Shown here in pieces: positions 18,826 to 60,584 of a DNA stretch of 64,000 nucleotides. The stretch's first letter is position 1. Each line of letters starts with the position of its first letter. A model generated the notes under the pieces. It saw only the letters and a program-made list of their open reading frames with translations. It did no database searches and was not told the DNA's origin. The stretch lies in the NCBI GenBank assembly GCA_963750165.1, contig CAVVPN010000003.1, forward strand, positions 896,001-960,000, given 5' to 3'. A program made the position numbers and the translations under genes. The stretch is from an uncultured Gemmataceae bacterium. Its GTDB lineage: Bacteria; Planctomycetota; Planctomycetia; Gemmatales; Gemmataceae.

Positions 18826-20069
18826 TCACACCACGTTCGCCGGCGCTGGGAACTGCCGCCCCAGCTCGCGCGCCTGGCCGCGGACGCGCTGGGCCAGCGC
18901 CGCGTCGTCCGGCGCCGCCAGCACCTGACCGATCCAGCCTGCGATGGTGCGCATCTCCGGCTCACGCAGGCCGCGTGTCGTCAACGCCGGCGTGCCGATC
19001 CGCACCCCCGATGGGTCCAGCGGCGGCCGCGGATCGAACGGAATCTTGTTCTTGTTGATCGTGATGCCGGCGCGGTCCAGCGCCTCCTCCGCGATCTTGC
19101 CGGTCACGCCGCGCGACGCCACATCGACCAGCACCATGTGATTGTCGGTGCCGCCGGACACCAGACGGAAGCCGAGCCGTTGCAGCTCGTCGGCCAGGGC
19201 CCGGGCGTTGGCGACAATCTGCGCCGCGTAACTGCGGAACTCCGGTCGCAGGGCCTCGCCGAAGCCGACCGCCTTGGCCGCGATGACGTGCATGAGCGGC
19301 CCGCCCTGCAAGCCCGGGAACACCGCCGAGTTGATCTTCTGGCCCCAGTCCTGCTTGCACAGCACGAAACCGCCGCGCGGCCCACGCAGCGTCTTGTGCG
19401 TCGTGGACGTGACGAAGTCCGCGAACTCGACCGGGTTGGCGTGCTGGCCGCCCGCGACCAGCCCCGCGATGTGGGCCATGTCCACGAAGAACAACGCCTT
19501 GACCTCGGCGCAGATCTCTGCGAAGCGCGCGAAGTCGATGGCCCGCGGATAAGCGCTGGCGCCAGCGACCACCAGCTTCGGCCGGTGCTCGCGCGCAGCG
19601 CCGCCACCTGATCGTAGTCGATGGTCTCGGTGTCCTTGCGGACACCGTAGCCGGTCACCTTGTACAGCTTGCCGGAGAAGTTGAGGTGCATGCCGTGCGT
19701 CAGATGCCCGCCGTGCGCCAGGTCCATCGCCAGGATGGGGTCGCCCGGCTGCAGGCAGGCGAAGTAGACGGCCATGTTGGCCTGGGCACCGGAGTGGGGC
19801 TGCACGTTGGCGCGCTGGGCGCCGAACAGTTTCAGCACCCGCTCGATGGCCAGGCGCTCAACGACATCGACGTATTCACAGCCACCATAGTAGCGCTTGC
19901 CGGGCAGGCCCTCGGCGTACTTGTTGGTGAGCACGCTGCCCTGGGCGGCCATGACGGCGGCACTGGTGTAGTTCTCCGAGGCGATCATCTCCAGGCCGTC
20001 CTGCTGGCGCTGCCGTTCGTGCTCGATGGCCTGCCAGATGTCGGGGTCGGCGGTCTTCAGAGGGTCCAT
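18826..20069 (-). CDS. glyA: Serine hydroxymethyltransferase, frameshift near 19596
   Basis: [21 protein letters not shown] in one frame; [22 protein letters not shown] in the next. Confidence 0.95.
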
Positions 20070-24936: not shown

Positions 24937-27900
24937 TTACGGCAAAAGCTCCCCGCTGGCTGCCAGGTTCACCTCAATCGTCATCAGGTCGAGGCCGGAG
25001 CCGGCCCAGGAGTCGATCTCCTGCTGGGAGGCGGCGGTGCGGTGCAGCAGGTTCGGCAGGAATGGCAGCGGCGACACGCCGTAGTAGGCACGCACTGCCC
25101 GCTCCCGGAACTCCAGCGAGGCCTCCAGGCCCAGCGCCACCGCCGCCGGCCCCTGCGTGTTCAGGGTCGAGCGCCAGGCCGCGACCTCGGCGGCGCTGAC
25201 CGCCGCCGGGGCGCGGCCCAGCAGCACTGCGTACAGACCGACGATGGTGTTGGCGCCCGCGTCGGGGCCGCCGATCAGCTGGTTGGCGCGGTTGGCGAAC
25301 TCCGGCGTATTGCCGGCGATGCCAGCGATCACCGACTCGAGCGTCGCCCCGGCCAGCAGCTGCCCCGACCAGCCCGCCAGGCCGGCGGCGTCGGGGGCGC
25401 GGCCGAGCAACAACTGGTACAGCTCCCCGACGCGCCGCTGCACCGACTCGGGCGAGCGCTGGATGGCCGCCGCCACCGTCTCCGCACCCCCTACCAGTTG
25501 CCGCGCCCAGTGCAACTGCTCCGCCAGGCTGGCCGGCCGCCCCAGGAAATCCTGATACAGTTGATTGACGTACTGTCGGTCGGTGATGGTCGTCCCGGGG
25601 TTCAACTGGTCGATATGCACCGAGATGTTGTAATCCCCCGGCACGGCGTAGGTGTGCTGGCCCAGAACCGTGACTGTGTTGCCGTTCACTTGCAGACTCC
25701 CGAGTTCCGGCGGTGAGCCATCGCCCCAGTCAATGGTGGCGCGGTAGAAGTTGTAAATGGTTTCCCCCAGGGAGGCCGAGCCGGCCTCCAGGCCGCCGGG
25801 GTCGGTGAACGTCGCCACCTTCACCAGACCGAGTGACGCATTCACGTTGCCCGCGATGGGGTCGGCTTGCACCAGGTTCACTTGCGGGTCGCTCACGTTG
25901 GCCGTGCTGGTCGTCGTCGATTGCGGGGCCGGGACGGGGTTGGAGGCCGCGGCGACGATCTTGACCTCAATCGTCATCAGGTCGAGGCTGGAGTTCGCCC
26001 AGGAGTCGATCTCCTGCTGGGAGGCGGCGGTGCGGTGCAGCAGGTTCGGCAAGAACGACAGCGGCGACACGCCGTAGTAGGCACGCACTGCCCGCTCCCG
26101 GAACTCCGGCGAGGCCTCCAGGCCCAGCGCCACCGCCGCCGGCCCCAGCGTGTCCAGGGTCGAGCGCCAGGCCGCGACCTCGGCGGCGCTGACCGCCGCC
26201 GGGCGCGGCCCAGCAGCACCGTGTACAGGCCGACGATGGTGTTGGCGTTCCCGTCAGGGCCGCCGATCAGCTGGTTGGCGCGGTTGGCGAACTCCGGCGT
26301 ATTGCCGGCGATGCCAGCGATCACCGACTCGAGCGTCGCCCCGGCCAGCAGCTGCCCCGACCAGCCCGCCAGGCCGGCGGCGTCGGGGGCGCGGCCGAGC
26401 AACAACTGGTACAGCTCCCCGACGCGCCGCTGCACCGCCTCGGGCGAGCGCTGGATGGCCGCCGCCACCGTCGCGGCGTCGGCCACCTGCCGCGGCCACT
26501 GCGCCTGTTCCGCCGCGCCGGCCGGCCGCCCCAGGTACGCCTGGTACAACCCTCCGATCAGCGCTTGCCGTTCGAGGTCTGACAGCGGGGTCAATTGCTC
26601 GACGGTCACCGTGATGGCGAAGGTGCCCGGGTCGTGGTAGGTGTGACTGCCCCAGACCGTGAACGTGCTGCCGGTGAGGCTGAGCGTGCCCGACGTTGGC
26701 GTCGTGCCGTCGCCCCAGTCGATGGCGGCGCGGTAGTAATCGTTGATCGTGCCGCCCGGGCTGAAGGCGTCCGGTTCGGGGCCGCCCGGGTCGGTGAACG
26801 TCGCCACCGGTTGCAGCGTCGCGGCGGCGGCCTGCACGGCGGTGAAGGTGAGGCCCCCGGTGAGGATCACCGGCGGGTCGCTGACGAGGACCTGGAACGT
26901 ACCCAGTCCGCCGTTGCCGGCCTGGTCGGCGACGCTGACCTGGACCGTGTAACCGCCCGGAGGGCCTGGGTAGCCGTAGGTGTGCGGTTGAGCGGGGATG
27001 GCGCCCGCGAGATTGACGTTGGCCAGGACCGTGGGCTGCGTGCCGTCGCCCCAGTTAATGGTGACCGAGTAGGTGCCCGGACTGGCGAGCGCGCCGACGC
27101 CGAGGCTGGCGGCCATCTCCTCGACGGCGGACTGGGAGCCGGGCGGGCTGTAGACAAACTGATTCTCGAACGCCCCGATGTCCTGGCGGCCGTTGACGAC
27201 GCGGGTCAGCCCGCGCTGGTCGAAGGGGCCGTCGGTGCTCGGGTCGCCCTCGCCGGCGTCAAGGGCGGGGCTGGAGGTGCCGGTGACGGTGCGCAACAGG
27301 GCCATGGTCTGCGTCGGCCCGCCGTAATTGCCCAGCGGTTGCAGGAGCGGGTTCACGTTCTGCAGGTCGCTCGCGGCGAAACCGCTCCCGCCGGTGGTGT
27401 TGCCGATCAGGTTGTGCCCCTGGGAGCCGAGGGCGCCGGCGACATCGAAGCCGGTGTTGTTCGCGAGGATGGTGTCGCGCACGCTGGCGGTGCCGCCCTG
27501 GTTAAAGAAACCGCCGCCAACGTCGGTGCCGCTGGCCCGGCCGAAAGCGCTGTTGCTGGCGATGGTGCTGGTGGTGATGACGACGTTGCCGCCGCCCTGG
27601 TTGAAGACGCCGCCGCCGAGGCCCTGGCCGCTCCCGCCGGTGCTGTTCAGCCCCATGCCGCCGCTGCCGAAGTCCGCGGTGTTGCCGGCGATGGTGCTGT
27701 TGCGGATCGTGACCGATCCCCCGTTGACGTTGAAGACGCCGCCGCCCAAACCGGCCCCGCCGCCGCCGCCCCCGTTGCTGCCGTCGCCGCCGCCGAAGCC
27801 GCCCAAACCAGGCCCGCCGCCGCCGCTGCCCGAACTGCCGTCGCCGCCGCCGCCGCCGCCGCCGAAGCCGCCCGCGCCGCCACTGTAGATGCCGTAGGCG

Positions 27901-28742
27901 GGTTCACGGGCCGCACCACCGCCACCGCCGCCGAGGCCGCCCGCGCCGCCGTTACCGGAATTGTCGTCAGTGAACCCGCCTAAACCGCCGTTGATACCGC
28001 CGCCGTTGCCGCCCTGGATTTCCACATTACCGCTGTTGCTGCCACCATTGCCGCCCACGGCGCTGTTGCTCGACACGGTGCTCGACAACAACGTCAGCAC
28101 CCCCCGATTGAAGATGCCGCCGCCCAGCCCGGCCCCGCCACCGCCGCCGCCGCCGAGACCGTTCGGGCTGCCCGCGCCGCCCTGGGCCACGCTGTTGGTG
28201 ATGGCGACACGACTGAGCGTCAACATACCGTCGTTGTAGATGCCGCCGCCGCCCTCATCGAAGGTTTCACCGATGTTGATTTCGGAGGAGTTGATCGCGT
28301 TCATCACCAGTCCTGCGGTGATCGTCAGGTCGGATATTTGCACCACGGCCGGGGGGGACTCATTCCTGGGGCCGAAGACCTCGAAGACGCGCGAGTGGTT
28401 ATTCCCGCTGACGGTGAGCCGGTCCGCCCCCAGGCCGGTGATGGTGAGATTGTGCGTGATCGCCAGTTCGCCGCTCGTGAGCGTGATGGTCTGCCCGGCC
28501 AGGCTGGGGTCGAAGGTGATGACATCGCCCGCGGCGCTGGCGAGGATCGCGGCGCGCAGCGAGCCGGGGTCGGCGTCGGTGGTGTTCGTCACCACCAGAT
28601 TCGCTGGCGCCAGCCGGTCTTCCAGGATCTCCAGGCGGAGCGCCGCGAACCGCAGTCGGTGGCGCGGGCCGGGGTGACGATGGCACGAGACCGACCGCGG
28701 AGACAGGCCCAACAGCTTCCGGATCCAGGAGTGGACTATCAT
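24937..28742 (-). CDS. Large surface protein: planctomycete extracellular signal, Gly-rich/choice-of-anchor-Q-like region, PKD-like and DUF4214-like repeats; frameshift near 26201
   Basis: LRLEILEDRLAPA, PLGNYGGPTQT...DQRG...DIGAFE, three (I)DWGDG/NWGDG units, LYQLLLGRAPDAAGLAGW twice. Confidence 0.8.
24971..26471. repeat. ~500-bp near-identical intragenic duplication (24971-25480 and 25964-26471)
   Basis: Direct comparison of the two stretches. Confidence 0.9.
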
Positions 28743-29270
28743 GATGGTGTCTCTAAAAAAGGGGGACGGCAAGCCGAGCAGTCTCGTTCTGTAGACACCC
28801 GAACGCCGCAACAGCGCTACGCTTGATCCGCGATCGCCATGCCCGGGTGTTCCGTCAGGGGCCGAAGTGGCTGGCGGGACGCCGCGGCGGGGTGAGGGCC
28901 GCGGGGCGGAAGAGGGTAGGGGCGACCATGGTGACTCGGCGAACAGGGCGGCAAACCTACAATCTATCTACACCCTGGGAAGATAAGGAACCTGGGGAAG
29001 ACATTGCAAGCCTTTTCTTCAGCAAATACAGAATAATAGGTAGCACAGCCTGTGCAAAGCGAACACGCTCCCGGCACGCCCTGCTTACCCAGGACAGCCG
29101 ATAGGATCCGGCCTTTTCGACTATTGTTCATTTCCCATCATGTCGATTCATTCAACAGGACCGGTTTGATCCCCCGTGCCCGGTGGGCCGACTGCTGGGC
29201 CGCCGGCGCCACGATTGTTAGCATCGACCGCCCTGGGGCGGATCGATGGTACAGCCCTACGAGGAGTGCT

Positions 29271-30482
29271 ATGCGTCCCCTTCCCGTCCTGCTGGCGGCC
29301 GCGGCCCTGCTGGTGGTGGCCGTCCCCGCGGCTCGGTCCCAGAGCCTGGATTCATTCCCGTTCAACCCCCGGTTGCCGGCGCCGCCCGGCTGCTGCCAGC
29401 CTCTTTACCAGTACCCTGGCAGCCTGTATTCCATGCCGTCCCAGTCCCCCCAGACGCCCGACGGCAAGGAGACCAGCCCGCTGAGCACGCCTTCCTCGAT
29501 CGGCGACACGGCCGCGCAGGCCGGCGCCGCGCCGACCCCGTCCGCGGACGCCGGCACGGGGGCGGGCCAGAGCGCGGGTATCGGCTTTAACCCGGCCATG
29601 TTCGGCGATCTGATCGGCGGCCCGACGGTGATTACCAAGGTGCGCATCAACGGGAACAACCCGCTCACCACCACGCCGGGCGCGGTGCTCACCGCCACGT
29701 CGCGCCAACCGCTGCTGAACCGCGGCACGTTCAAGATCGCGGACAACGACAGCCCGCGGCCAGTGGACCGAGTCTTTGTCACCTACAACTATTTCGACAC
29801 CGTCAACACCTTCACCTCCGGTATCCCGGGCTTCAACGTCAACCGCGAGATGTTCGGCTTCGAGAAGACCTTCGCCTACGGCAACGGCTCGTTTCAGATG
29901 CGCTTGCCATACCTCCAGCTGGAGAACGCCGTCGGCGCCCCCAGCAGCAACATCTCGGGCGACATGACCCTGGTCCTGAAGTACGCCGTCATCAACGACC
30001 GGCAGACCGGCAACGTCCTGTCCGGCGGCGTGGCCTTGACGCTGCCCACGGGTGACTCGTTCCTCGCCGCGACGGGCGAGACCATTCACGACACCCTGAT
30101 CCAGCCGTGGGTCGGCTACATCTACAACCTGGACCGCCTGTATGTGCAGGGATACCTGGCCGTGGTGGTCCCCACCGACTCACGGGACGCGACCCTGCTG
30201 TTCAACGACATTGGCCTGGGCTACTGGGCCTACCGCAACCCCGACCCGACCGAGTTCTTCCGGGGCATTGTGCCGACCATCGAGGCCCACCTGCTCGACC
30301 CGCTGTCGCACCGCGGCTCGCAGAGCCTGCCGGTCGGCTTGCCGGACTACCTGACCTTCACGGGCGGCGTGAACTTCGTCTTCGGCACAAACTCGACCCT
30401 GGGATTCGCCCTCGGCACCCCGGTCACCGGCCCGCGGCCGTACAATTACGAGGGCACGGTCGCACTCAATATCCGTTTTTAG
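29271..30482 (+). CDS. Predicted outer-membrane beta-barrel protein
   Basis: Signal peptide, DSPRPVDRVFVTYNYF, amphipathic strands, C-terminal VALNIRF. Confidence 0.65.
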   Translation: MRPLPVLLAAAALLVVAVPAARSQSLDSFPFNPRLPAPPGCCQPLYQYPGSLYSMPSQSPQTPDGKETSPLSTPSSIGDTAAQAGAAPTPSADAGTGAGQSAGIGFNPAMFGDLIGGPTVITKVRINGNNPLTTTPGAVLTATSRQPLLNRGTFKIADNDSPRPVDRVFVTYNYFDTVNTFTSGIPGFNVNREMFGFEKTFAYGNGSFQMRLPYLQLENAVGAPSSNISGDMTLVLKYAVINDRQTGNVLSGGVALTLPTGDSFLAATGETIHDTLIQPWVGYIYNLDRLYVQGYLAVVVPTDSRDATLLFNDIGLGYWAYRNPDPTEFFRGIVPTIEAHLLDPLSHRGSQSLPVGLPDYLTFTGGVNFVFGTNSTLGFALGTPVTGPRPYNYEGTVALNIRF

Positions 30483-30670
30483 TGAGCGGCGGCAAAAGTA
30501 CTTGTGGACCCGCGCGCCCTCACTATGGTAAACGCTAGAAGGCGCCGGCGGGGCCACGGGTTGGGCCTGAACGGCTAACGCGGCCATCAGGCTGGCGGAC
30601 AAAACCTTGAGCCCGCGGCCAACGTCGTGGGGCCCTGGTTCGGGGAGCAGTGCCGAGGAGTTCTCCTTCC

Positions 30671-32104
30671 ATGTCCGCTCAACCGGTACACTGGCACGAG
30701 GGCATGTTCCTGCTGCCACAACACCTGCAGGCGGCGCAACGGCACGGCGCCCACCAAACCCGGCTCGGTGACAGGTGGACGCAGCACTACGGCTGGGGCC
30801 TGCGGGCCTGCGAGCTGGACCTCGACGCCCTTGCCAATCACCGCCTGGTAGTCCGTAAACTTCACGCCCGTCTGGGCGATGGCACCCTGGTCACCGTCCC
30901 CGAGGATGGCCTGCTGCCAGACCTGGACCTGCAGGGTGCGCTGGACCGCGTCGGCACGGTTCGCGTCTACCTCGCTGTGCCGACCTTTGACCTGAGCCGG
31001 GCCAACGTCTCGGTCAACGGCGCCGACGACCGGGCGCGCTACCGGGTGGACGCGCTGGAGCTGGAGGACGACAGCAGCGGCCAGCACCCCCAGCCGGTGG
31101 AGGTGCGCCGGCTGAACCTCAAACTGCTGCTCTCGACGGCGGACCGTGCCGGCTACGAGACGGTGCCGGTCGCCCAGCTCAAGAAGGCGGATCGCGCCGA
31201 GGCGGCGCCAGAGTTGGACACAGCCTACATCCCGCCGCTGCTGGCCTGCGACGCCTGGAAGCCGCTGGCCCGCGACATCCTCGAGCACCTCTACGACCGG
31301 GTCGGCGCTCTGCTCACCCGGCTTGCGGCGCTCGTGGTCTCGCGGCGGATCAGCCTGGAGAGTCAGTCCCCCGGCGACCGGCTGCTGCTGGAACAGTTAC
31401 GCGCCCTCAATGAGGCGTTCGCCTTGCTGCGGGTCATGACCTTCGCCCAGGGGGTGCATCCGTTCCCCGCTTACCTGGAGTTGTGCTGCCTGGTCGGCCG
31501 CCTGGTCATCTTCAGCCGAAAACTCGGCCCACGGACGCCGGCCGACCTGCCGCTGTATGACCACGACGACCTGGGGCGCTGCTTCTACGCGATGCGGGAT
31601 TACCTGCACGAGATCCTGGACTTTCGCCCCCCGGACTACCAGGAGCGGCCATTCACTCGCGAGCAGGACCGCATGGAGGTCAACCTCGAGCCGGAATGGC
31701 TCGACCCGACCTGGGAAATGTTCGTAGGCGTGGACACCCCGCTGACCACGGACCAGTGCGTCCAGTTACTCAGCCCCAGGGGGCTGGACATGAAGATCGC
31801 CAGCACCGCCCAGGTCGATGCGATCTTCAACCAGGGGCGGATGGGGCTGCTGTTCACCCACGCCCCGCAGCCGCCCTCGGTGCTGCCGGCCCGGCCCAGC
31901 CTGGTGTACTTTCAGGTGGACCGCAAGGCCGAGCCGGGCGTCTGGAAGGATGTCGAGGAGCAGCGGGCCCTGGCCCTGCGCGTCAACGGCGTCGCCAAGA
32001 AGGGCCCGAAGGACGCGGCCAACGAGGTCATCATCCGCGCCGGCGGCGGCCAGACCGCGGCGCTGAAATTCACCCTGTACGTCGTCCGCCGGCTGCACGC
32101 CTGA
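30671..32104 (+). CDS. tssK: T6SS baseplate subunit TssK
   Basis: VHWHEGMFLLPQHLQ, YIPPLL, HPFPAYLEL, YDHDDLGRCF. Confidence 0.92.
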   Translation: MSAQPVHWHEGMFLLPQHLQAAQRHGAHQTRLGDRWTQHYGWGLRACELDLDALANHRLVVRKLHARLGDGTLVTVPEDGLLPDLDLQGALDRVGTVRVYLAVPTFDLSRANVSVNGADDRARYRVDALELEDDSSGQHPQPVEVRRLNLKLLLSTADRAGYETVPVAQLKKADRAEAAPELDTAYIPPLLACDAWKPLARDILEHLYDRVGALLTRLAALVVSRRISLESQSPGDRLLLEQLRALNEAFALLRVMTFAQGVHPFPAYLELCCLVGRLVIFSRKLGPRTPADLPLYDHDDLGRCFYAMRDYLHEILDFRPPDYQERPFTREQDRMEVNLEPEWLDPTWEMFVGVDTPLTTDQCVQLLSPRGLDMKIASTAQVDAIFNQGRMGLLFTHAPQPPSVLPARPSLVYFQVDRKAEPGVWKDVEEQRALALRVNGVAKKGPKDAANEVIIRAGGGQTAALKFTLYVVRRLHA

Positions 32105-32139
32105 GCGGCCGCCGCCAACTCGCTGGGATTGCGCACGCC

Positions 32140-32868
32140 ATGCGTGAGGACATCGCCGAACTGGTGCATGCCGTGTTCCGGGGCGGGTTCCGCCTGAAAG
32201 AGCGGCTGGCCGCCGGGGAGCCCGTGGACCTCAAGGAGGGCCGCCGCGACCTGCTGCGGCTGCTCGACAACCCCCTGCTGCACGCCGGCGACAGGTACGA
32301 CCTGGGCGTCCACTACGCGCTGGTGTGCTGGCTGGACGAGCTTCTCATCGACGACACGCCGGCGGGCCAGCAGTGGAGCGAGGAGTTTTGCCTGGAGCAG
32401 GAACTCTATCAGACGCGCCTGCGGGCCCACAAGTTCTGGAACCCCGGCGTCAAGGCGGCCGAGGCGCGGCCCGGCGGCGACGTGCTGGAGGTGTATTACC
32501 TCTGCTACCTGCTCGGCTTCCGGGGCGATGAGGACAGCCGCCCCGCCGACCTGGCCGCCTGGGCCGAGCGCGTGCGGCCGCAGGTGATGCGCGGCTACGG
32601 CGAGGAACCGGCGCAGCTCGATAAGAGCACGCCGGACTCGGACGTGCCGTACCTGTTTGGGCGGTCGCAGTTCCGCAAGATGCTCCAGACGTGGGCCGTG
32701 GCGTTGTTGATCCTGGCCTTCGTGGTGGGCTTCCTGGTGGTCTACCGGTTCGGCTCCCGGGTCAGCGCCCACGCCGCAGCGTGGGCCGAGCATGCCGCCC
32801 GGCTGCATTGTGCTCCGGAGAGATCATGGGCTTCTTGCGTTGGATCTGGGACGGCCTCCGGCAACTGA
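32140..32868 (+). CDS. tssL: T6SS TssL/DotU, no OmpA domain
   Basis: YALVCWLDE, LEVYYLCYLLGFRG, C-terminal TM. Confidence 0.88.
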   Translation: MREDIAELVHAVFRGGFRLKERLAAGEPVDLKEGRRDLLRLLDNPLLHAGDRYDLGVHYALVCWLDELLIDDTPAGQQWSEEFCLEQELYQTRLRAHKFWNPGVKAAEARPGGDVLEVYYLCYLLGFRGDEDSRPADLAAWAERVRPQVMRGYGEEPAQLDKSTPDSDVPYLFGRSQFRKMLQTWAVALLILAFVVGFLVVYRFGSRVSAHAAAWAEHAARLHCAPERSWASCVGSGTASGN

Positions 32869-34427
32869 TCGGCCTGATTCTACCGATCTTTTCGAAGGCG
32901 GCCGACTTCCGGTCGTACAGCTCGGGCGCGAAAATCGCCCTGCACGTCCTCGTTTTGGTCGTGGTCCTGGCCGGGTTGACCTTCCTGCAGAACTGGGTGC
33001 TACTGAGTTTCACCCTGGCTTTCCCCAATCACCCGTACCTCAAATGGATGTGGCTGCCGGTCCTGTTCCTGCTGGTGTACGTCCTCGTCTGGCTGCTCTG
33101 GTGGCTGTGGCACATCCTCCTCAGCGAGGAGGCCGGCTCGGACTTCCCGGACCTGGACGCGGCCTGGGGCGAGATCAGCAAGGCCCTGCAGGCGGCGAAC
33201 ATTGCCTTGCAGGACGTGCCGTTGTACCTGGTGCTGGGCCGGCCGGCGGCGGGGGAGGCGGCGTTGTTCCACGCCGCCCGCCTGCCGTTTCTGGTCAAGC
33301 AGGCGCCGGGCCCGGACGCGCCGGTGCAGGCCTGGGCCAACCGGCAGGACGGCATTTACGTCGCCTGCGTGGACTCGTCGCGGCTCGGCTCCCGGGCGAG
33401 CCTGCTGGCGCTCACCGGGGCCGAGGACTCGGGCGGCGCCGCCGCGCCGCTGGAGTTCGACGCCGCGACCGCCACCATCGGCGGCGCCACCATCGGGGCC
33501 GGCATGCAGGTAAATGTCGGCGGGTTGCTGGACGAGCAACTGCCGGAGGGGGAGCGGCGGCGCCGGGCCAAGGCGCTGGACGTGGCGGACCAGCCGGAGC
33601 TGGCCCGGCGGTTGACGGCGCGGCTGGAGCACCTGTGCCGGCTCGTGGCCCGGGAGCGCTGGCCGGAGCCGCCCGTCAACGGCATCCTGGTGCTGATCCC
33701 GCACGTCGCCACGCAGTCGCGGGCGGCCGCGGAGGGCACGACGCGCGACTGTCAGCAGGATCTGGAATCGGTCTGGAACGTCTTCCGGCTGTCTTGCCCG
33801 CTGTTCGCGCTGGTGTGCGACCTGGAAAAGGCCCCGGGGTTCGCGGACTTCCTGGAGGGCCACCTGGCGCGCTGCCGGACCGAGGAGGAGCGGCGCAAGG
33901 AGCGGCGGCGGCGCCTGGGCCGCCGCCTGGGCTGGGGCGTGGGCATGGACCCGGCGACCCGCCGCAGCGCCATCGAGGAACAGGTTGGGTGGATCGGCCG
34001 CGGCATGTTCCCGCACCAGATCTACAAAAGCGTTTTCTACACGGAACGGCCGGGGCGTGAGGACCCCGCCGAGATCATCCGTCACAACTACCAGGTCAGC
34101 CGCTTCTTCAACGCCATGTTCCAGGGCCAGCGCTGGCTGACCGCCATCGTTCGGGACGGCCTGATTATCCGGCAGGACGGGCCGGAGTTACTGGGCGGCT
34201 GTTACCTGGCCGCCACCGGCCAGGACGCGGACCGCGAACAGGCGTTCGTCGCCGGGGTGTTTGAGCGCCTGCAGGAATCCCTCCGCCTGATTCGCTGGAG
34301 CGACGAGGCCTTTCAGGAGGACGCCCAGTACCAGCAGTGGACGCGCCTCGGCTATCTCGGCTTGCCGGTGTTCGTTCTCGTCGTGGCGGTGCTGCTGATC
34401 CTGTGGTGGCAACCGTTTGGGGGCTGA
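32826..34427 (+). CDS. tssM: Short TssM/IcmF-like protein (N-terminal domain only)
   Basis: N-terminal TMs, VPLYLVLGRPAAG, RLEHLCRLVARERWPEPPVNGILVLIP, C-terminal TM then stop; follows tssL. Confidence 0.75.
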   Translation: MGFLRWIWDGLRQLIGLILPIFSKAADFRSYSSGAKIALHVLVLVVVLAGLTFLQNWVLLSFTLAFPNHPYLKWMWLPVLFLLVYVLVWLLWWLWHILLSEEAGSDFPDLDAAWGEISKALQAANIALQDVPLYLVLGRPAAGEAALFHAARLPFLVKQAPGPDAPVQAWANRQDGIYVACVDSSRLGSRASLLALTGAEDSGGAAAPLEFDAATATIGGATIGAGMQVNVGGLLDEQLPEGERRRRAKALDVADQPELARRLTARLEHLCRLVARERWPEPPVNGILVLIPHVATQSRAAAEGTTRDCQQDLESVWNVFRLSCPLFALVCDLEKAPGFADFLEGHLARCRTEEERRKERRRRLGRRLGWGVGMDPATRRSAIEEQVGWIGRGMFPHQIYKSVFYTERPGREDPAEIIRHNYQVSRFFNAMFQGQRWLTAIVRDGLIIRQDGPELLGGCYLAATGQDADREQAFVAGVFERLQESLRLIRWSDEAFQEDAQYQQWTRLGYLGLPVFVLVVAVLLILWWQPFGG

Positions 34428-34589
34428 GCAGGCGGACCGTGCTACAATTATCTTTCTTCCTCCAGGATCCGTTTACGTTTCGCGCTCTGCTCGTGCGTGA
34501 AACGAAAACGGGTTCGCGCGGGCGAAAGCATCAGAAAACATCAGGAGTTTACAGTTCGGACAGGTCCAGCGCAACACTGCGAGGTCATC

Positions 34590-37500
34590 ATGGAACGGAC
34601 GGACGCCAACCGGGACGCACTCACCCCGGCGGATCAGCAGGTCCTGGAATCGTGGCTGCAGGAATTTGAACAATCCTGGCACGAGGACAAGCTCGGCCAG
34701 ACCCTCCATGAACTGCCAGCGGAGGGGACGCTGCGCCAGGTGGCGATGAGCGAGCTGACCAAGCTGGACCTGCGCCACCGCTGGCGTCGGGGCGAGCCGA
34801 AGAAAATCGAGTCCTACCTGAACGACATTCCCGATCTCGGCACGTCGGCCACGCTGTCGGTGGACCTGATCCGCGCAGAGGTGGAAGTGCGGCGGGAACT
34901 GGGCGAAGACGTCTCGGAGCAGGAACTGCTGACCCGCTTCCCGCTGCACGCGGACCAGCTGCGGGGCGAATTCTCGCAGTCCTGGCGCGCCGTCCCCGGT
35001 TCGCGGCCGAGCGCCTCGCTCTCGACCATCAACCCCATCGACACCCCGGCCCCGCGCACGGCTCCCGCCCCCGCTCCCCCGGCTCCCCGGCCCGCCGGCA
35101 AGGCCCCGGCGGCCGCCACGGCCCTGCCCCGGGCCGGCCAGCGCTACCGGATTATAACGAAGCACGACCAGGGCAACGTGGGCGAGGTGTTTCTGGCCCT
35201 GGACGAGGAGGTGCCGCGCGAGGTGGCGCTCAAGCGGTTGCAGGCCAAGTGCGCCGACGACCCGGAAACCCGCGCCCGCTTCCTCCGCGAGGCTGAAATC
35301 TGCGGACGGCTGGAGCACCCGGGCGTCGTCCCCGTCTACGGCCTGGGCGTCGATTCCGACGGCCGCCCCTTCTACGCCATGCGCTTCGTCAAGGGGGAGA
35401 GCCTCCGCGAGGTCCTGCGCCGCTTCCACGGCCAGGGGCCGCGCGACGCCGGTGCCCGCCGCGTCGAACTGCACAAGCTGCTCGGCCGTTTCATTACCGT
35501 GTGCCAGGCGGTGGAGTTCGCCCACCGCAGCGGCGTGCTGCACCGCGACCTCAAGCCGGCGAACATCATGCTCGGCGAATTCGGCGAGACCCTGCTCGTG
35601 GACTGGGGCATGGCCAAAATCCTCGGCCAGGACGAGGAACCGGGCGGCGACGTGGTCAGTGCGGTCGAGGCCCTGCTGCCGGACGCGCCGGGGGACGGAC
35701 AGGCATCCGCCGCGTCCGCCCAGTCCACCGCCCGCGGCCCGCAAGCGGACCTCACCCAGACCGGGCAGATTCGCGGCACCACCGCCTTCATGAGCCCCGA
35801 ACAGGCGGCCGGGAAGATCCACGAACTCACCCCGGCCAGCGACATCTACGGCCTGGGGGCGACGCTGTACCAGATCCTGACGGGCAAGCCGCCGTTCGAG
35901 GGGTCGGACCTCCGGCACATCCTGGGCCGGGTGCGGGCCGGCGACTTCCCGCGGCCGCGCAAGCTGGCCCCGGCGGTCCCGCCTGCCCTGGAGGCGATCT
36001 GCCTGAAGGCGATGGCACTGCGGCCGGGACAGCGCTACCCCTCGGCCCGGGCGCTGGCCGACGACCTGGAGCGCTGGCTGGCCGACGAGCCGGTGAGCGC
36101 ACTGCCCGAGCCGTGGACCGCGCGGGCCGGGCGCTGGCTGCGGCGGCACAAGGCGCTGGTGACCGGCGCCGTCGTCCTGCTGACGGCGGCGGTGGTCGCG
36201 CTGAGCGCCAGCACCGTGCTGATCGCCGAGGCCCAGCAGCGGACCGAGCAGCAGCGTGCGGCGGCGGCGGCGGCGGAGCAACAGGCCCGCGCCGCCTTCC
36301 AGGACGCGGACCACCAGCGCCAGCTCGCGGTCGCGGCGGAGCAGAAAATCAAGGGCGCCCTGGACAAGGTCGAGGTCGCCCGACAGGACGCCGAACGCCA
36401 GCGCATCAAGGCTGTGGACTCTCAGGAGAAGGAGGCCGAAGCCCGTGCGGCGGCGGAGCAGGCCCTTGCGAACGAGAAGGCGGCGCGGGAACAGGAGCAG
36501 GCGGAACGGAAGAAGCGGGCCCTGGCCGAGGCCGAGGGCCTCACCGAGGCCAACCCGGTCGCGGTGCGCAAGGTCATCGACATCCTGAAGTCCACCCCCC
36601 AGGACGTGCTGCCGCACGTGCTGCCGCGGCTGCGCGAACTCTGGGAGCGGAAAAAGCCGCCCCTGAGCCTCGGCCAGCGCCTCCGCGTCGGCGTGGCTCT
36701 GCTGATGCTGGACGACAAGGCGACCAGGGACATGCTCGCCGCGCTGCCCGGGTTGATGCTGCAGACGGACGACCCCGGGGAATTGCTCCTGGTGCGCGGC
36801 GCCCTGGAGCCGCACCGCGCGGCGGTGGCCCCGGCCCTGTGGCAGAAGGCGGACGACCCGAAGACGCCGAACGCCGAACGCTTCCGCGCGCTGGCGGCGC
36901 TGGCGGGGCTGGACGACGCGAAGGCCCGGTGGCACAACCCGACCTGGGCGCCGGCGAAAACCACTGCCGCCGGCACGCCCACGGCCTTTGTCGTCGAGCA
37001 CCTGCTGTCCGCCAACGCCCTGCGCCTGGGCCAGTGGGCCGAGGCGTTCCGGCCGGTCAGCGCGGAGTTGCTCGAGCCGCTGCAGGCGGCGTTCAAGGAC
37101 GCCCACCGACCGCACCGCGGGGTGGTGGCGGCGCGGCTGCTGGCCGACTTCGCCGCCGGGCTGCCCGAACTGCTCGCGGGACTGGCGCTGGACGCAAAGG
37201 ACGAGCAGTACCTGTTGCTGCGGCCGGTTTTGCTGGCCCACCCAGACCGGGCGGCGCCCGTGTTCCGCAAGGAGCTGGCGCGGCCGAAGCCGGACGCGCT
37301 GGACGCCCAGGTCGCCCTGGCGCGGCGGCAGGCGCACGCAGCGGTGGCCCTGCTCCACCTGGGCCAGGTGCAGGAGTCGGGGCGACTGCTCAAGCACGGC
37401 CCGGACCCGACGCTGCGGACGTTTCTGATCCACGCCCTGGGCCGGCGCGGCACCGACCCGGACCTGCTGGTGAAGCGGCTGAAGGCGACGGACGAGGTGT

Positions 37501-38619
37501 CGGAGCGGCGGGCGTTGATCCTGAGCTTCGGCGAGATCGCGGCGGGGCAGTGGCCGCTGGCGCGACGCCAGGAGGTGACCCAGGAATTGTTGAAGTGGTA
37601 TCGCGAGGACCCGGACCCGGGCGTGCATAGCGCCATCGACTGGCTGCTGCGGCACGGCATGCAGGGGCCGGTGCCGCGCAAACTGGACTGGCAGCAGGCC
37701 GCGGCGCTGGACAAACTCGACCGGAACCTTGCCGCCCTCGGCGACAAACTCCCGGTTGGTCGCGACTGGTTCGTCACAGCCCGGGGTGGGCACACGCTGG
37801 CAGTGGTCCGCAGACCTGTCGAGTTCTGGATGGGATCGCCTGCGGGCGAGCCACGGGGCTGGAGCTTTGACAACGAGGCGCTGCACCGCAAACGCATTCC
37901 CCGCTCCTTCGCGGTCGCCACGCGCGAGGTGACCGCCGCGCAGTTCAAGGCGTTTTTGCAAGCGCATTCGGAGCTGCAGAAGAAACACAAGCTGGAAAGC
38001 CAGGAGCGGTTCGGCCCCGACCCGGACGGGCCGGCGCTGGGGGTCACCTGGTCCGAGGCGGCTGCCTACTGCAACTGGCTGAGCAAGATCAACGGCATCG
38101 ACGCGGACCAGTGGTGTTACCAGATCAACGCCAGTTCCGGGGCCGTGAAAATGGCCCCCAATTTCCTCAACCTGCGCGGCTACCGCCTGCCCACCGAGTC
38201 GGAATGGGAATACAGCTGCCGGGCCGGCGCGGACCCGCTGGGGATTCGGCAACGGGGTCGCGATGCTGCCCGAGTACGCGTGGTTCTTCCTCACGAGCGA
38301 GGACCGCGCCTGGCCGGTGGGCCAGTTGAAGCCCAACGACCTCGGCCTGTTTGACATGCACGGCAATGCCTGGGAGTGGTGTCAGGATCGGGTGATGACA
38401 TTCGATTACCCGAAGAACGTGGCCGGCCAGGCCGTCGTGGAAACGCTGGAGCGGGAACTCACGCCTCTCGCGGCCAACCGGCGGTGTGTCATGCGTGGCG
38501 GTTCGTTCTTCAATCGAGCGCCCATCACCCGCTGTGCGCAGCGTTACCTTGGGAAAGTGCTGGGCGATCCGCCGGCCAACGACGCCGGCTTTCGGGTCGC
38601 ACGCACCATGCAACTCTGA
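34590..38619 (+). CDS. Membrane Ser/Thr kinase with helical repeats and C-terminal FGE-sulfatase (SUMF1) domain; frameshift near 38232
   Basis: VALKRL, HRDLKPAN, DWG, MSPEQ; TM; RLPTESEWEYSCRAG, KPNDLGLFDMHGNAWEW, GFRVART. Confidence 0.88.
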
Positions 38620-38747
38620 TGGGAGCGCGCGAAACTATGCGGGCGGACAGGGTTGTTTGGCGCTTTCCCCGAGGAGGGAGAACGTGCCAGACAACCCCGT
38701 CCGCCCGCGCTGAGCCAATCGTGTCCCCTGTCCGGGAGCGCGGAGTG

Positions 38748-40524
38748 CTATTCCGGGACATCCACCAACACCACTCCGGTGGAGATACGCTCGCTCTCAG
38801 GACGAATGACCGTCCTGGGCGCTGGCGCTGGAGGGACCGCACCCGGGGCGGTTGGCGCCGGACCAGGAGGCTGCATCTCGATCGGTCTCGGGGCGTACCG
38901 CACCGGGAAGGCCGGCGCCGCGCCGGGTTGCACCGTGACAGCAGACGCTGGCGTGACCGGCGTCCATGCGGCCTGCCGGGGTGCGAACTGCACCGGGGTC
39001 GTCGGGGCGGGGTTGGTCCGCACCGGGATGATCGGCGCCGAGATGACCGGCGGCAGGGCGGCGGGCGGCTGGTCGAATCGCACCGGGGCTACTGGAGCCG
39101 GAGCGGCCGGCAGCGGGCCGGTTGACAGCGGAGCCACCGGAGCCGGAGCGGCCGGCAGCGGGTCGAATCGCACCGGACTGATCAGCGGGGGAACGGGGGG
39201 AAGCAGGGTCGCCGACGCCGTGAAGGACGCCGGGGCGGACGGCATCGGGGCGAATCCGGCCGTGGTGGCCGCCGCCGGGGCGACGCCCACCGGCGTGATT
39301 GGCGCCGGCGCGGGGTGCGGCGGCGCAACCGGCACTGGGTTGGTGCGCATCGAGGTGGCCGGCGCCGGGGCGGCCTGCTTCGGAACGGCCTGTTTCGGAA
39401 CGACCTGCTTCGGAGCGACGCGCGCCGGGGATTCCGGGGTAGCGTTGAGGGAGTTTTCAATCACGCCGAAAAAGCTGGCCTCGGGGCGGGGCGACGCGGA
39501 CGGCGACGCGGGCATGGCGTTCCCCATCTTCTCGAGGGCTTTCCGCGAATTGGCCACCACCTGAGCCAGCGTCATTTTCTCGATGCGCTGATAATAAGAA
39601 AGCGCGCCGGCGCCCTTGGCGGGCGTGCTGCCGGGGTTTGCGGGCGTGGCCGCGGCGGTTTTGGCGGGCGCCTCGCTGGCGGCCTTGGCGGGCGTGGTAC
39701 CGGCGGTCTTGGTGGGCGCCGCTCCCGCCCTGGCGGGCACTTCCGGCGGGAGGGCCTCCACCGGTTTCTTGTCGAGTTCCCGAAGGGGCGGCCCTTCCAC
39801 CAGCGGGGGTTCGATGGGCACCAAGTCCGGGGGCACCGCCGCCGCGAAGCGGGCCAGGCAGGAGTTCAGCGCCATCCAGGCGGTGGCCCGCACGCGCTCC
39901 GAGGCCTCCGGCGGTCGGCCGTCCTCGTCGTTACAGGTCACCGTCAACGTCAGGGCCTGAATGGTGGACCTGGTGCAGCAGCAGCCGCGGCCCAGCGCCA
40001 GCGCCGCCTCCCAGCGCACGCACTCGTTACGGTCGGCGCAGGGCGTTAATCAGCGCCTCCTGTGCCTCGGGCCAGTAGCGGCAATCGACCGTGCCCAGGT
40101 AGCGGACGTCGGCCCGGCGCGCCTTGGCGGCGGCCTCGTCGGCCTTGACCAGGGCGGCGGCCCCTGTCGGGCTGTCCGCCGGCGCCGCCAGCTGCGCGGC
40201 GGTCGGCAGGTCCGGGCAGCAGTTCCCGAGGATGCCGCCGCTGAAGACGCGGATGGGGGCCAGGCTGTTGTTGAAGAACTGCCCCACCGGCGAGGCACAG
40301 AACTTCGCCTTGCAGTAGGCACAGGTGGCGATCAGGTTCGCGATCTTGGTCCCGGCCGGTGGGCCGGCCGCGGGGACGACGGCGGCAGCCGGTGCTGCCG
40401 CGAGGGGCCCGGCCGCGGCCGGCGCCACCGGCACGGCCGCGGCCGGCACGGCCGGAACCTGACCGCGAGCGGCTGGCAGCAGCAGGGCCACCAGCACCAC
40501 TGGGGCGCCGAATTTCTTCCACAT
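38748..40524 (-). CDS. Exported Cys-rich HEAT-repeat protein with Pro/Ala-rich tail; frameshift near 40036
   Basis: Signal peptide; VRYLGTVDCRYWPEAQEALINALR joins DRNECVRWEAALALGRGCCC. Confidence 0.7.
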
Positions 40525-40965
40525 GGCCAAGGGCTCCTTCAGTCTGTTATTCCCCACCCAGTTCCAGGTGGCCCGGGAGACGCCGCCGAAGTAGCCGTCC
40601 CCTTCTGAAAATTGATGCAAAGTCACTTCACCACCAACTTCGGCCGCGGCCCCTCAGGCTGAAATGATTGCGACGGTTGAAGCGGCTGGCGGCATATTCG
40701 CGCGAACCCTCATATCCTGGAGAACCCCTTCTGTCGGAAAAGGCGTTGGAATTTACGATGCAGGCGCGGGAGCGGGTCCGATACTGAAAACAATCTCGAC
40801 GGGGTGAACCTCCTACGACCGCGGAACGGGCGAACCACCCTTTCCAGGCCGCGCAACCTGCCCCGAATCCGTTACGGTCACACCTCCATCCCGTTGGTCG
40901 TCGCGCCCGGTCCTCGCGGGCCCACGCCGCGGACGAGCTTGAACAGGAAAGAAGGAGTGCAGCCT

Positions 40966-42224
40966 ATGAGGTGGGAGTCAAGTCAGCCCCGTGGGGGCAA
41001 GGCGAAGGTTTGGGCGTTCGGGTTGACGTGCGTGGCCCTGTTGACCGGGGTTGCGCCGGCGCTGGCGCAGAAGCCTACTGACGCCCCGCCGACGAAGCTG
41101 TCGGACCTCGCCGCCCCGACGTTGGCGGCGGCGCCGGCGGCGCCGGACGCCAACGTGACCCAGGCGAGCTGCAGCACCTGCTCCGGCGGACTGCTCGGCG
41201 GCTCGCTCGGCGGCCCGCCGCCGCTCCCCGGCGACGGCGGCGGCTGCGGCGGTGGCGGCTGTGGCGGCGGTCAGTGCGTCCCGGGGCGATTGAACTGTTG
41301 CAGCTGCTGCGAGGGCCAGACCTGCCTGGGCCGCATGCTCTGCGGGTTCTACGAGTGCATCTGCTGCCCCGACCCCTGCTACGATCCACACTGGATCGCC
41401 CTCGCCGACTCCGCCCTCTTCGTGAACGCGCCCCGGCCCGTCACCCAGATGCACTGCGCTACGACGGCATTTACGGCATCCCGTTCGCGGATCGGGCTGA
41501 ATACTACTTCGCCCGGGACACGGGCACCCCGGCGGGCGGCGGCCGCGGGCCGAACTTCAACATGGCGCGCCTCGTCAACATCAATCAGCTGAGCCTGTAT
41601 AACGAAGCGGCCCTGGGGCGGTTCAGCGCCTTCATCGCGGTCCCGTACAACGAGGTCCACCGCGACACCGACTTCGGCTACAGCGTCGCCAGCTCCGGCT
41701 TCGGGAACCTGAGCGTCGGCACCAAGTCCATGTTACTCGACTGTGAGTTGCTGCAGATCACGTTGCAATTCACCACGTACATCCCCACCGCCAGCCCCGG
41801 CGGCGGCCTGGCAAACGGCCACGTGAGCCTGGAACCGGCCCTGCTGTTCGCGTTAAAGTTGACCCCCGAATCGTACTTCCAGGGGGAACTGGCCCAGTGG
41901 ATTCCGGTCGGCGGGGACACAATCTACCAGGGGAACGTGTTCCACTCCCACTTCAGCTTCAACCACATCCTGTGGCGTTTCCTCCCCGACGTGCAGTTGA
42001 TCGGGACGATGGAGCTGAGCGAGTGGTCGGTGTTGAACGGCAACTTCACCGACCCGTTGACCGGCGCGATCCAGCGGGCGGCCGGGTCCGCCTGGAGCCT
42101 CGGGCCGGGCCTGCGGTTAAACATCTGCAACCGGATCGACTTCGGCGCGGGGGTGCAGTTCGGCGTCGGCTCAGATCGGTGGTATGACGAGAACTTCCGG
42201 GCAGAATTCCGGTGGCGCTTCTGA
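40966..42224 (+). CDS. Predicted outer-membrane beta-barrel protein with Cys-rich N-terminus; frameshift near 41453
   Basis: Signal peptide, NAPRPVTQ, SGFGNLSVGTK, C-terminal AEFRWRF. Confidence 0.65.
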
Positions 42225-42442: not shown

Positions 42443-43579
42443 ATGCTCGCCACGGACACTCTGAACCTCGACAGGCTAACGGCCCCCATCTCCGCGGAAC
42501 ACCCCACCGGCGTGGACCTGCGCAGCGACCGCTCCCCCAACTCCCTCTACCGGCAGATTCGCGACGTCCGCGACACCGCCAAGACGGCGGAGCGGCAACT
42601 CCTCGTGGACGACGAGGAAGGCGGCGGGACAACACCCCCGGACTGGGTACCGGTGTTCGACCTGACCCGGCAGGCCCTCGCGGAAAAAACCAAGGACCTG
42701 GAACTCACGGTCTACCTGCTGGAGGCTCTGGTGCGCCGCGACGGCCTGGCCGGGCTGTCCGCGGGCTTCCACCTGATCCGTGAGTTGTGCGAGCGCTACT
42801 GGGACCAGCTGTATCCCGGCGCCGGTGCCGGTGCGGGGCTCGCGGACCGGGTCGCCCCGCTGGCGGGCCTGAACGACGTGGATGGCCTGATCCTGGAGCC
42901 CATGAACACCCTGCCGATCACGGAGGCCAGTGCCGCGGGGGGGCCGTACGATGGCGTGCGCTATCAGAAGGCAGTGGACCTGACCACGCGCGACGAGGCG
43001 ACGCGGCAAAAGCGCATTGCGGCGGGGACGATGCCGCTGGAGGCGCTCCAGGAGGCGGCCCAGGGGACCTCGCCGGAATTCTACGCGCGGGCGGTGGCCG
43101 CCCTGGCGGAATGCACCGATGCGCTGGAGCAACTGGGGGCCGTGCTGCAGGCGAAATGCGGCCGCGACGCGCCCTCCACGGCGCGGATCCGCGCCGCCCT
43201 GCAAAAATACGGCGAGGCGCTGCGCGGCGTGGCGAAGGACAAGGTGGCCGCCGCCATGCGGCCGCCCGGCGCGCCGCCGGCGCCGGCCGGCGCCGACGGG
43301 CCGGCGCCACCCGCGGCGGCGGCCCCGCTCCGGCCCGACGGGCCGCCGCCGACCCCCGGGCCCATCGGCAGCCGGGAGGAGGCGTTGCAAACCCTGCTGA
43401 AGGTGGCGGAATTTTTTCGCCGCACCGAGCCGCACACTCCGGTATCATATGCCCTGGAGGAGGCCGTCCGCTGGGGCAGGATGAAGCTGCCGGATTTGCT
43501 GGAAGAACTGATCGCCGACGAGGGGACACGGCAGCAGGTGTTCAAGCGGGTGGGCATCCGGCCGCCGTCCGCCGGGTGA
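42443..43579 (+). CDS. tssA: T6SS TssA
   Basis: [40 protein letters not shown]. Confidence 0.92.
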
Positions 43580-45886: not shown

Positions 45887-47510
45887 ATGGACCCCTCCGC
45901 CGGCGCCGCCGCCCTTCCCCCAAGCGTCCCCCAGACCGCACTGGTAGACGCCCCGGCCCCGGCGTTCGCGAGCCCGCCCGCGGCGGTCGGCCTGCTCGAC
46001 CACCTCCTGCAGGCGGCCCAGTCCGCCAGCAACCACGCCACCCACTGGCTGGACCGCTTTCTCGCGGAAACCTCCCTGGAGCAGGCGCTGGCGTTCTGGT
46101 GCGCGCGCAGCGCGACCGGGCCGCGGACCCGCCAGGAACTGGCCCAGTCCCTGAGCCGCGACATCGCCCGCCTCGACGCACTCCTGAGCCGGCAAGTCAA
46201 CGCCATCCTGCACCACCCGCAGTTCCAGCAACTGGAGGCCTCCTGGCGGGGGTTGCACTACCTTGTGGAGCAGGCCGGCGCGGCCGAGACGGCGAAAATT
46301 CGGGTCCTCAACCTCTCCTGGGCCGAACTGACGCGCGATCTCGACCAGGCCCTGGAGTTCGATCAGAGTCAGCTGTTCCGCAAGGTGTACGAGGGCGAGT
46401 TCGGCATGCCCGGCGGCGAGCCGTTCGCGGTCCTGCTCGGGGACTACGAGGTCCGGCCGCGGCCCACGGCGGAGCACCCCCACGACGACATCGCCACGCT
46501 GGCGGCCGTCGCCCGGGTGGCGGCGGCGGCCTTCGCGCCGTTCATCGCCGCGGCCCATCCGTCTCTGCTGGGGCTGGACAGTTTTACGGAGTTGGAGCGG
46601 CCCCCGAACCTGGCGCGGGCGTTCGACCAGCTGGAGTACCTCACCTGGCGGCGGCTGCGGGACGGCGAGGACGCCCGCTTCGTCGGGTTGACGATGCCGC
46701 GCGTCCTGTGGCGGCTGCCCTACCGCGACGACGGCACCCGCGTCGATGGGTTCGCGTTCAGGGAGGAAATCGAGGATCCGGCGCGGCGGCAGTACCTGTG
46801 GGGCAACGCCACCTACGCCTACGGCGCCGTGCTGCTGCGGGCGTTCGACGAAAACGGCTGGCTGGCGAACATCCGCGGCGTGCATCGCGACCCGGACGCC
46901 GGGGTCGGCGGCGGCGGCCTGGTGACCGGGCTGCCGGTCCACGCCTTCCGCACCGACCACCTGGGCGTCGCCGTCAAGTCGTCCACCGACATCCAGCTCA
47001 CCGACTTCCTGGAGAAGGAGCTGAGCGAGCTGGGCTTCTTGCCACTGTGCCACTGCCCGGACACCGAGGTGTCGGCGTTCTACAGCAGCGCGTCGGTGCA
47101 GAAGCCGCGCCGCTTCCAGGAGGCGGCGGCCACGGCCAGCGCCCGGCTGTCGGCGATGCTGCACTGCCTGCTGTGCGCCTGCCGGTTCGCCCACTACCTC
47201 AAGGTGATGATGCGCGACAAGCTGGGCGGCTTCACCGGCCCGGCCGAGTGCGAGGCGCACCTTGACGCCTGGCTGCGCGGCTACACGACCGCCACGAACG
47301 ACGACGACATCAGCTCGTCGGTGCGCCGCCGCTACCCGCTGCGCGAGGGCGCGTCCGCGTCCGCGAACACCCGCGCAAACCGGGGAGTTACACCTGTGTC
47401 ATGTACCTTCGCCCGCACTTCCAGCTGGACCAGGTGGTCACCGCGGTCAAGCTGACCACCGAACTGGTGCCGATGACCAGCTCGACGGCCCGGAAAGGAC
47501 CCCGCCATGA
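45887..47510 (+). CDS. tssC: Second TssC paralogue; frameshift near 47348, exact end uncertain
   Basis: [37 protein letters not shown] lies in the shifted frame. Confidence 0.88.
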
Positions 47511-48318: not shown

Positions 48319-48812
48319 GTGGCCCGTGTCAAACCCGACCAGCCGCTCGTGCCCTCGGTGCTGGACCGCCTGCTCGACGACGAGCCGGGCGTGTCCACCG
48401 AGGCGCCGCGCTCGCGCGGCCAGGTGCTGCGCGAGCTGAAGCTGTCCGTGCAGCGCGACCTGAATCACCTGCTGAACACCCGCTGGCGGTGCCGGCACTG
48501 GCCGGCGGACCTCAAGGAACTGGGGCAGTCGCTGGTCAACTACGGCATCCCGGATTTCGCCGGCAGCAACCTGGCCTCCGCGGACAGCCGCCGGGCGCTG
48601 TGCCGCATCCTGGAGGACGTCATCCGGGCGTACCAGCCGGCCTTTTTGAAGGTCACCGTCCGTGTGCGCGACGACGACGAGCCGCTCGACGGCACGCTGC
48701 GCTTCCGCATCGACGCCCTGCTGCGCGTACATCCGCGCCGGAACCGGTTACCTTCGACCCGGACCTGGAACTGGACACCGGGACATTCAAGTTCGAGGCG
48801 CCGTCCCCATGA
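48319..48812 (+). CDS. tssE: T6SS TssE; frameshift near 48732
   Basis: PSVLDRL, RDLNHLLNTR, SLVNYGIPD. Confidence 0.9.
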
Positions 48813-58945: not shown

Positions 58946-58953
58946 GGTGCGGC

Positions 58954-59349: not shown

Positions 59350-59360
59350 GAGAGTCGGCC

Positions 59361-59909: not shown

Positions 59910-59922
59910 CCGCAGGTGGCGC

Positions 59923-60540: not shown

Positions 60541-60584
60541 CGGCCGGGCCGGGGGCGACCGGTCACGGTGGCGCGGAGGATTCG

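Follow-up and report, generated by a model that had tools for sequence, protein, structure and literature searches.

A 64,000-nucleotide (nt) stretch of DNA from an uncultured Gemmataceae bacterium, hereafter the window (G000:C3:896001-960000, where G000 is the source genome of 9.6 Mb and 93% completeness), carries one type VI secretion system (T6SS) together with two genes for predicted outer-membrane β-barrels, A and B. In a survey of 251 Planctomycetia genomes, each at least 90% complete, tssK was present in 111 (tssK+) and missing from 140 (tssK−), and barrel B occurred in 54 of the former and in none of the latter, a distribution that identifies it as a subtype component, specific to T6SS-bearing Planctomycetia and non-universal among them. 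Related genomes are not independent, so that any p value drawn from such counts would be inflated. It is very probable that B takes part in the T6SS by some mechanism. Tentatively, and with a probability that we place just below even, we propose that B and an adjoining secreted, Cys-rich HEAT-repeat protein (hereafter HEAT) make up the outer-membrane anchor or positioning point of a T6SS in which TssJ is missing and TssM is of half length. The genes concerned lie in the window as follows.

29271-30482, + strand: barrel A, 403 amino acids (aa), intact; predicted 12-stranded FapF/COG4313-like outer-membrane barrel of a widespread planctomycete family that is only sometimes T6SS-adjacent
30671-32104, + strand: tssK (PF05936, E 1.4e-73)
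32140-32868, + strand: tssL, without a peptidoglycan-binding domain (PF09850, E 2.3e-17; TIGR03349)
32826-34427, + strand: short tssM, 533 aa, stopping a few residues past the last transmembrane helix, with no periplasmic domain (PF14331 only; hydropathy)
38748-40521, − strand: gene for a secreted Cys-rich HEAT-repeat protein whose tail is Pro-rich; runs divergently from barrel B and changes frame near 40036
40966-42224, + strand: barrel B (PF13557, E 5e-6), of a T6SS-restricted family; signal peptide and Cys-rich N-terminal region, then a predicted plug and 12-stranded barrel; frame break near 41452
42443-43579, + strand: tssA (PF06812, E 8.7e-30), opening the tssA-B-C-C-impE-tssE-F-G-clpV-hcp-vgrG block

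The T6SS thus reads tssK-L-M, a kinase/FGE gene, and then the tssA-to-vgrG block followed by PAAR-like genes. Both barrels and every core gene tested except tssC are single-copy in the source genome, and homologues of the window barrels are mostly labelled Gemmataceae or Gemmatales. TssJ (PF12790) was detected in none of the 251 Planctomycetia genomes, with E. coli and locus L292 positive as controls, although a very diverged TssJ could escape this search. The 43 complete TssM proteins (of 45) in the fetched loci were all 467-632 aa long, and in 42 of them no more than 52 residues follow the last predicted helix. The absence of TssJ and of the periplasmic part of TssM is real and class-wide in Planctomycetia. 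Five loci of other planctomycete classes encode TssM of 1147-1547 aa, and one of these loci has a Pfam TssJ. Outside the class, loci L294 and L295 have a TssM of ~1500 aa, and a small lipoprotein gene without a Pfam TssJ match lies 5' of tssK in L294.

An earlier note, made from this DNA alone, had placed one barrel gene before tssK and the other before tssA, both co-oriented with their neighbors, and this arrangement holds: the stop of A lies 188 nt 5' of the tssK start (30671), and that of B (42224) lies 218 nt 5' of the tssA start (42443). The signal peptides and C-terminal Phe that it ascribed to both proteins were likewise recognized, the former as signal-peptide-like N-terminal stretches picked out by reading the sequence rather than by a signal-peptide tool, and the latter as the final residue of each. 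A C-terminal aromatic residue is a generic trait of outer-membrane barrels. The note's count of two barrel genes needs qualifying, as both are real but B is spread over two frames rather than one open reading frame (ORF), starting at 40966 and changing frame near 41452. Tblastn or translation exposed further frame changes in glyA (18826-20069), the second tssC (45887-47466) and tssF (48809-50636). Because these genes, including housekeeping glyA, are also interrupted, assembly error is likelier than decay for the breaks in B and HEAT, and the one-base frameshift in B is likely an error of this kind. Given the multiple frame changes, gene calls in the source assembly need care. Scans for promoters, terminators and sigma-54 sites returned signal at or below chance.

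The (D/N)xPRPV motif that the note had described as common to both proteins does occur in each, just ahead of the first barrel strand (A, ~29748-29765; B, ~41425-41442). The exact form is no family signature, being rare in both families (A, 2 of 88 rows; B, 9 of 110); a relaxed [PA][RK]P core occurs in 82 of 88 and 91 of 110 rows, respectively. The N-terminal Cys residues, also claimed as a common trait, proved not to be equivalent, since A has 2 and the N-terminal piece of B has 16 (alignment medians of 3 versus 16 for the two families); B-family proteins carry, moreover, an invariant Cys/Pro motif ahead of the barrel. BLASTP found no similarity between A and B (best E 0.11), which rules them out as close paralogues. 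Their full-length profiles matched weakly (20.6%), and a profile-profile comparison of the barrels alone reached 97.1% (E 7e-11, 235 columns) with the PRP motifs in register. On these sequence comparisons, we take A and B to be genuine genes that are distantly homologous.

B was called at E≤3.4e-81, a cut placed at a score gap after the list had been seen, which agrees with a 99%-supported clade in a quick tree from which four near-duplicate rows were omitted. This search scored 7 candidates in each genome. When it was repeated with the barrel alone and 10 candidates, two partial matches, both weak, were gained and no further full-length one. B is spread over 36 genera and 8 families, and in the two best-represented families it was found in 19/24 tssK+ versus 0/31 tssK− genomes and in 22/40 versus 0/20, respectively. 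A phylum-wide sample of 101 genomes, 24 of them with tssK, yielded a strong B-like match only in the source genome, along with four weak matches, all in tssK− genomes. The tree further resolved a sister clade of B (8 rows, 7 with core T6SS genes nearby) and a mixed clade of 15 rows, of which 4 adjoin core genes and several adjoin secreted WD40 proteins of ~1400-1850 aa; both clades are without the Cys motif. Eight tssK− genomes carry B-like barrels, exclusively of clades lacking this motif. Either B or some B-like barrel is present in 73 of the 111 tssK+ genomes.

Secreted WD40 or WD40-caspase proteins (1200-1850 aa) adjoin B-like or A barrels in L154, L157, L223, L224, L228, L229, L271, L276 and L277, in and out of T6SS loci; a WD40 protein and a barrel possibly form a separate barrel-plus-cargo module.

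Among the B loci fetched (49 of 59 matches), 45 have the HEAT gene next to B, either divergently (34) or in tandem (11). HEAT is found in 53 of the 54 genomes with B, and in 85/111 tssK+ versus 4/140 tssK− genomes; other T6SS genes are present in G220, which belongs to these four. A single genus contributes two genomes with a continuous ORF of 1351 or 1458 aa (L225:4784-8839, L269:9730-14106) for HEAT and a sister-clade barrel, the two parts being joined by a long Pro-rich linker and the gene lying inside the T6SS locus. This pairing of barrel B with HEAT is a new element. An attempt to describe HEAT as a uniform lipoprotein was abandoned, as a crude pattern flagged 20 of 107 proteins with visible false calls and misses, and most N-termini resemble ordinary signal peptides.

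Structure prediction bears out the β-barrels proposed for both genes, with 12 strands each, as counted on AlphaFold2 models rather than solved structures. For B, the intact orthologue of G188 (L153, ORF residues 61-406) was modelled in place of the split window gene and gave 12 long strands with a mean predicted local distance difference test (pLDDT) score of 91.5 and a predicted template modelling score of 0.85; the model of A (pLDDT 77.5) has 12 barrel strands and an additional N-terminal hairpin. FapF (5O65) was the best structural match of both, at Z 23.5 for B (root-mean-square deviation 3.4, 233 residues aligned, plug region included) and Z 17.9 for A, and the COG4313 channel Pput2725 (4RL8) also matched at Z 21.8 and 17.4, respectively. 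Both outranked autotransporter barrels. The alignment of the B model with FapF begins at residue 71 of the former and residue 88 of the latter, in what is the plug region of FapF as far as an alignment can tell. PF13557 hit B in the window with 27.1 bits (cut-off 22) and did not match A; at E≤0.01 it matched 13 of the 35 rows of B-like barrels and 6 of the 49 for A, and the ESM Atlas, like Pfam, indicates this family weakly. A sequence search of the PDB with four profiles returned no relative, and NCBIfam contains no model for A, B or HEAT. From the models, A and B are predicted to be plugged 12-stranded barrels whose nearest relatives are FapF and the COG4313 channels.

Barrel A behaves differently from B. 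Among the 116 matches listed at E≤1.2e-59, beyond which lie 75 weaker ones, A was found in 53/111 tssK+ and 32/140 tssK− genomes. It is not T6SS-specific, because it is present in those 32 genomes, and the planctomycete T6SS-specific outer-membrane module suggested by the note can accordingly be retained for B, with its restriction to tssK+ genomes and its setting of missing TssJ and short TssM, and not for A. The same division emerged from phylogenetic profiling, which the note had recommended: B is confined to tssK+ genomes and A is common without a T6SS. The B-HEAT pair is often unlinked to the core locus. In A loci of at least 8 kb a core T6SS gene appears in 3 of 53, and the fetched flanks of the four closest relatives of A hold none. 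Still, of the 75 listed matches that belong to tssK+ genomes, 15 are no more than 40 kb from tssK, and five changes on the A tree are needed to account for T6SS adjacency, although several rows of this tree were picked for nearness to tssK. The likeliest reading for A, which we hold with modest confidence, is that in the source genome it is carried along by the T6SS island and serves some unrelated purpose. In the proposal made above for B, A is a general-purpose relative that has repeatedly been placed beside T6SS loci and may have a similar role in some lineages. Very large genes like the one at 25977-28811 flank A in several other T6SS loci, without family-wide enrichment, and a tie between A and large planctomycete extracellular proteins was discarded, as these occur in only 7 of 68 A loci, at ~7.5 per Mb compared with 7.9 per Mb in G000.

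Clustering of the unannotated ORFs of 100 fetched loci uncovered a dominant family of giant proteins in 41 loci. These are ~1300-1750 aa long and combine one N-terminal helix with a caspase-like domain, in which the catalytic Cys is mostly missing, plus either a vWA domain or, at the C-terminus, CarboxypepD_reg. Usually two paralogues occur together, of which the second is split in some cases. Beside the window lies such a pair:

C3:960707-965833, 965861-966847 and 967098-969056 (L296), outside the window, the first starting 707 nt past its end: giant single-pass protein with caspase-like and vWA domains (1708 aa), and its second paralogue, which is split

The giant N-domain was found at E≤1e-30 in 100/111 tssK+ versus 6/140 tssK− genomes, with 94 versus 3 at 1e-40 and 111 versus 76 at 1e-10, a level at which generic caspase folds are picked up as well. 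The giants are better candidates than the barrels for the missing periplasmic half of TssM.

In the arrangement that we envisage, the baseplate (TssK) would dock on TssL and short TssM, and the giant single-pass proteins would form a cage spanning the periplasm. HEAT would then join this cage to B at the latter's Cys-rich N-terminal region, perhaps by disulfides. B would fix or position the complex at the outer membrane, and the needle would cross this membrane alongside the barrels and not through one. Several observations weigh against such a role for B and HEAT. No B-like barrel is present in 38 of the 111 tssK+ genomes, 17 of which keep HEAT nonetheless, so that B is not generally essential, and in roughly half of the B-less loci examined HEAT is flanked by giant genes on one or both sides. 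Physical linkage is loose as well: tssK lies within 40 kb of 18 of the 59 B matches and on the same contig in 27, of the 25 B-centred loci covering a full 20 kb, only 11 hold a core gene (core or giant gene, 16), and metagenome B loci of at least 8 kb had a core gene in 6 of 27 (core or giant gene, 9 of 27). The HEAT-barrel fusion is confined to one genus and counts as one event, and its order of passenger, long linker and C-terminal barrel would equally suit autotransporter-like surface display. The kinship among the genomes and the choice of the B cut-off after inspection of the list must also be reckoned against it.

That last feature of the fusion leads to the alternative that we take most seriously, albeit as an unlikely one, in which B would be a FapF-like or autotransporter-like exporter displaying HEAT or another unfolded partner as a surface contact sensor or adhesin that guides T6SS assembly. 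Its top fold match, FapF, is itself a polypeptide exporter, a plugged trimer that exports unfolded FapC, and the Fap system also includes a C39 peptidase (PMC5557850); C39-peptidase-like genes lie near vgrG in five fetched T6SS loci (L156, L170, L202, L209 and L210). In Acinetobacter, TslA with OmpA localizes T6SS assembly to contact sites, according to the main text of a 2026 review of accessory factors (PMC13584744). An exporter leaves unaccounted for, however, the persistence of HEAT in the 17 tssK+ genomes devoid of a B-like barrel, and a plug on the periplasmic side fits somewhat better, if weakly, in that the B model meets the FapF plug from residue 71 and autotransporter linkers only from ~81. 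Less probable still is a COG4313-type small-molecule channel or sensor co-inherited with the T6SS that would take up prey lysate or a firing signal: the PF13557 matches among B-like and A rows and the Z score of B against Pput2725 speak for it, but the invariant Cys motif, the fixed HEAT pairing and the fusion would be left unexplained.

The earlier note had favored the barrels as components of a replacement channel, and A and B together forming or lining an outer-membrane passage for the Hcp/VgrG needle would suit a locus flanked by both and short of TssJ and periplasmic TssM; A lies within 40 kb of tssK, amid giant, WD40 and large extracellular-type genes, in 10 of the 38 genomes without a B-like barrel, and several barrels could ring a larger opening. 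Each chain is predicted, though, to close as its own 12-strand barrel, plugged and far narrower than the Hcp tube. The Hcp ring is roughly 80-90 Å wide and a 12-strand lumen ~1 nm, so a single barrel could not pass the needle. In Pput2725, a 12-stranded barrel, the lumen would measure ~10-12 Å if the N-terminal plug were removed (PMC4493636). Such a channel agrees neither with the occurrence of A in tssK− genomes nor with the 38 tssK+ genomes that have no B-like barrel, in 28 of which A is also missing from the 40 kb around tssK (some of these are on short contigs). It is not plausible that either barrel is the needle channel, and we consider the joint version highly improbable. Equally improbable, for the two barrels taken together, is that they are mere passengers of the T6SS island with unrelated functions. 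The rarity of core genes around A and its nearest relatives points that way, yet B, for all that it is often unlinked, turns up in none of the 140 tssK− genomes, and the nearness of some A matches to tssK, with the repeated changes in adjacency, tells against A as a passenger.

Compared with known systems, the planctomycete locus has in common with the TssJ-TssL-TssM complex of T6SS-i its TssK, TssL, the cytoplasmic IcmF_N part of TssM and the order K-L-M, but differs in lacking TssJ, in a TssM that stops at the membrane and in the extra barrel, HEAT and giant single-pass genes. The note had invoked the Bacteroidota T6SS as a precedent. T6SS-iii TssNQOPR comprises four inner-membrane proteins and one lipoprotein, with no barrel (PMC10781749); the precedent thus stands for a lineage-specific envelope module, not for a barrel, and fits the giants better, as TssQ, TssO and TssP have a single N-terminal helix and periplasmic domains and resemble them in topology. 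TssNQOPR, moreover, replaces TssL and TssM entirely, with TssN as the baseplate dock, whereas both TssL and TssM are present in the window. FapF (PMC5557850) has the 12 strands, plug before strand 1 and N-terminal extension that are predicted for the window barrels, but identity is 13-14% and its coiled coil contrasts with the Cys-rich or Pro-rich N-termini found here; no fap genes were recognized in a Pfam scan of the window. The COG4313/PF13557 channels, akin by weak Pfam matches and structural Z scores, differ in that the present proteins have long N-terminal extensions and a T6SS rather than a catabolic context. The TssJ-less Acinetobacter T6SS with TsmK, TslA and OmpA also uses accessory periplasmic and outer-membrane proteins that stabilize and position the complex, but these are other proteins, and it keeps the TssM C-terminal region missing in Planctomycetia (main text of PMC13584744). 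That main text contains neither "Planctomyc" nor "barrel", and a literature search covering mainly non-subscription papers retrieved no paper on planctomycete T6SS membrane complexes or envelope components.

Other genes of the window around these elements are the following, of which those 3' of vgrG likely form an effector, immunity and adaptor block.

25977-28811, − strand: large protein of extracellular type (PKD and DUF4214 domains) whose gene runs divergently from barrel A; the ORF end looks frameshifted
34497-38354, + strand: Ser/Thr kinase with an FGE-sulfatase-like domain, directly 3' of tssM; the ORF end looks frameshifted
58214-63788, + strand: DUF6484, PAAR-like, SMI1/KNR4 and DUF2169-HEAT genes, 3' of vgrG

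The T6SS membrane complexes described so far anchor by a lipoprotein and not by an integral barrel. Possibly, though with somewhat less assurance than for the anchor itself, these loci represent an undescribed Planctomycetia T6SS subtype. Its envelope complex would be rebuilt from half of a TssM, giant single-pass proteins of caspase-fold/vWA type, HEAT as a disulfide-rich linker, and barrels resembling FapF that ring or anchor the needle exit. If true, this would be an independent solution for crossing the envelope, apart from TssJLM and TssNQOPR, and the first to have an integral outer-membrane barrel of its own. A short parts list for these systems would comprise the two giant single-pass proteins, the Cys-rich HEAT protein and barrel B. 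Annotation pipelines that demand TssJ would be expected to under-call planctomycete systems.

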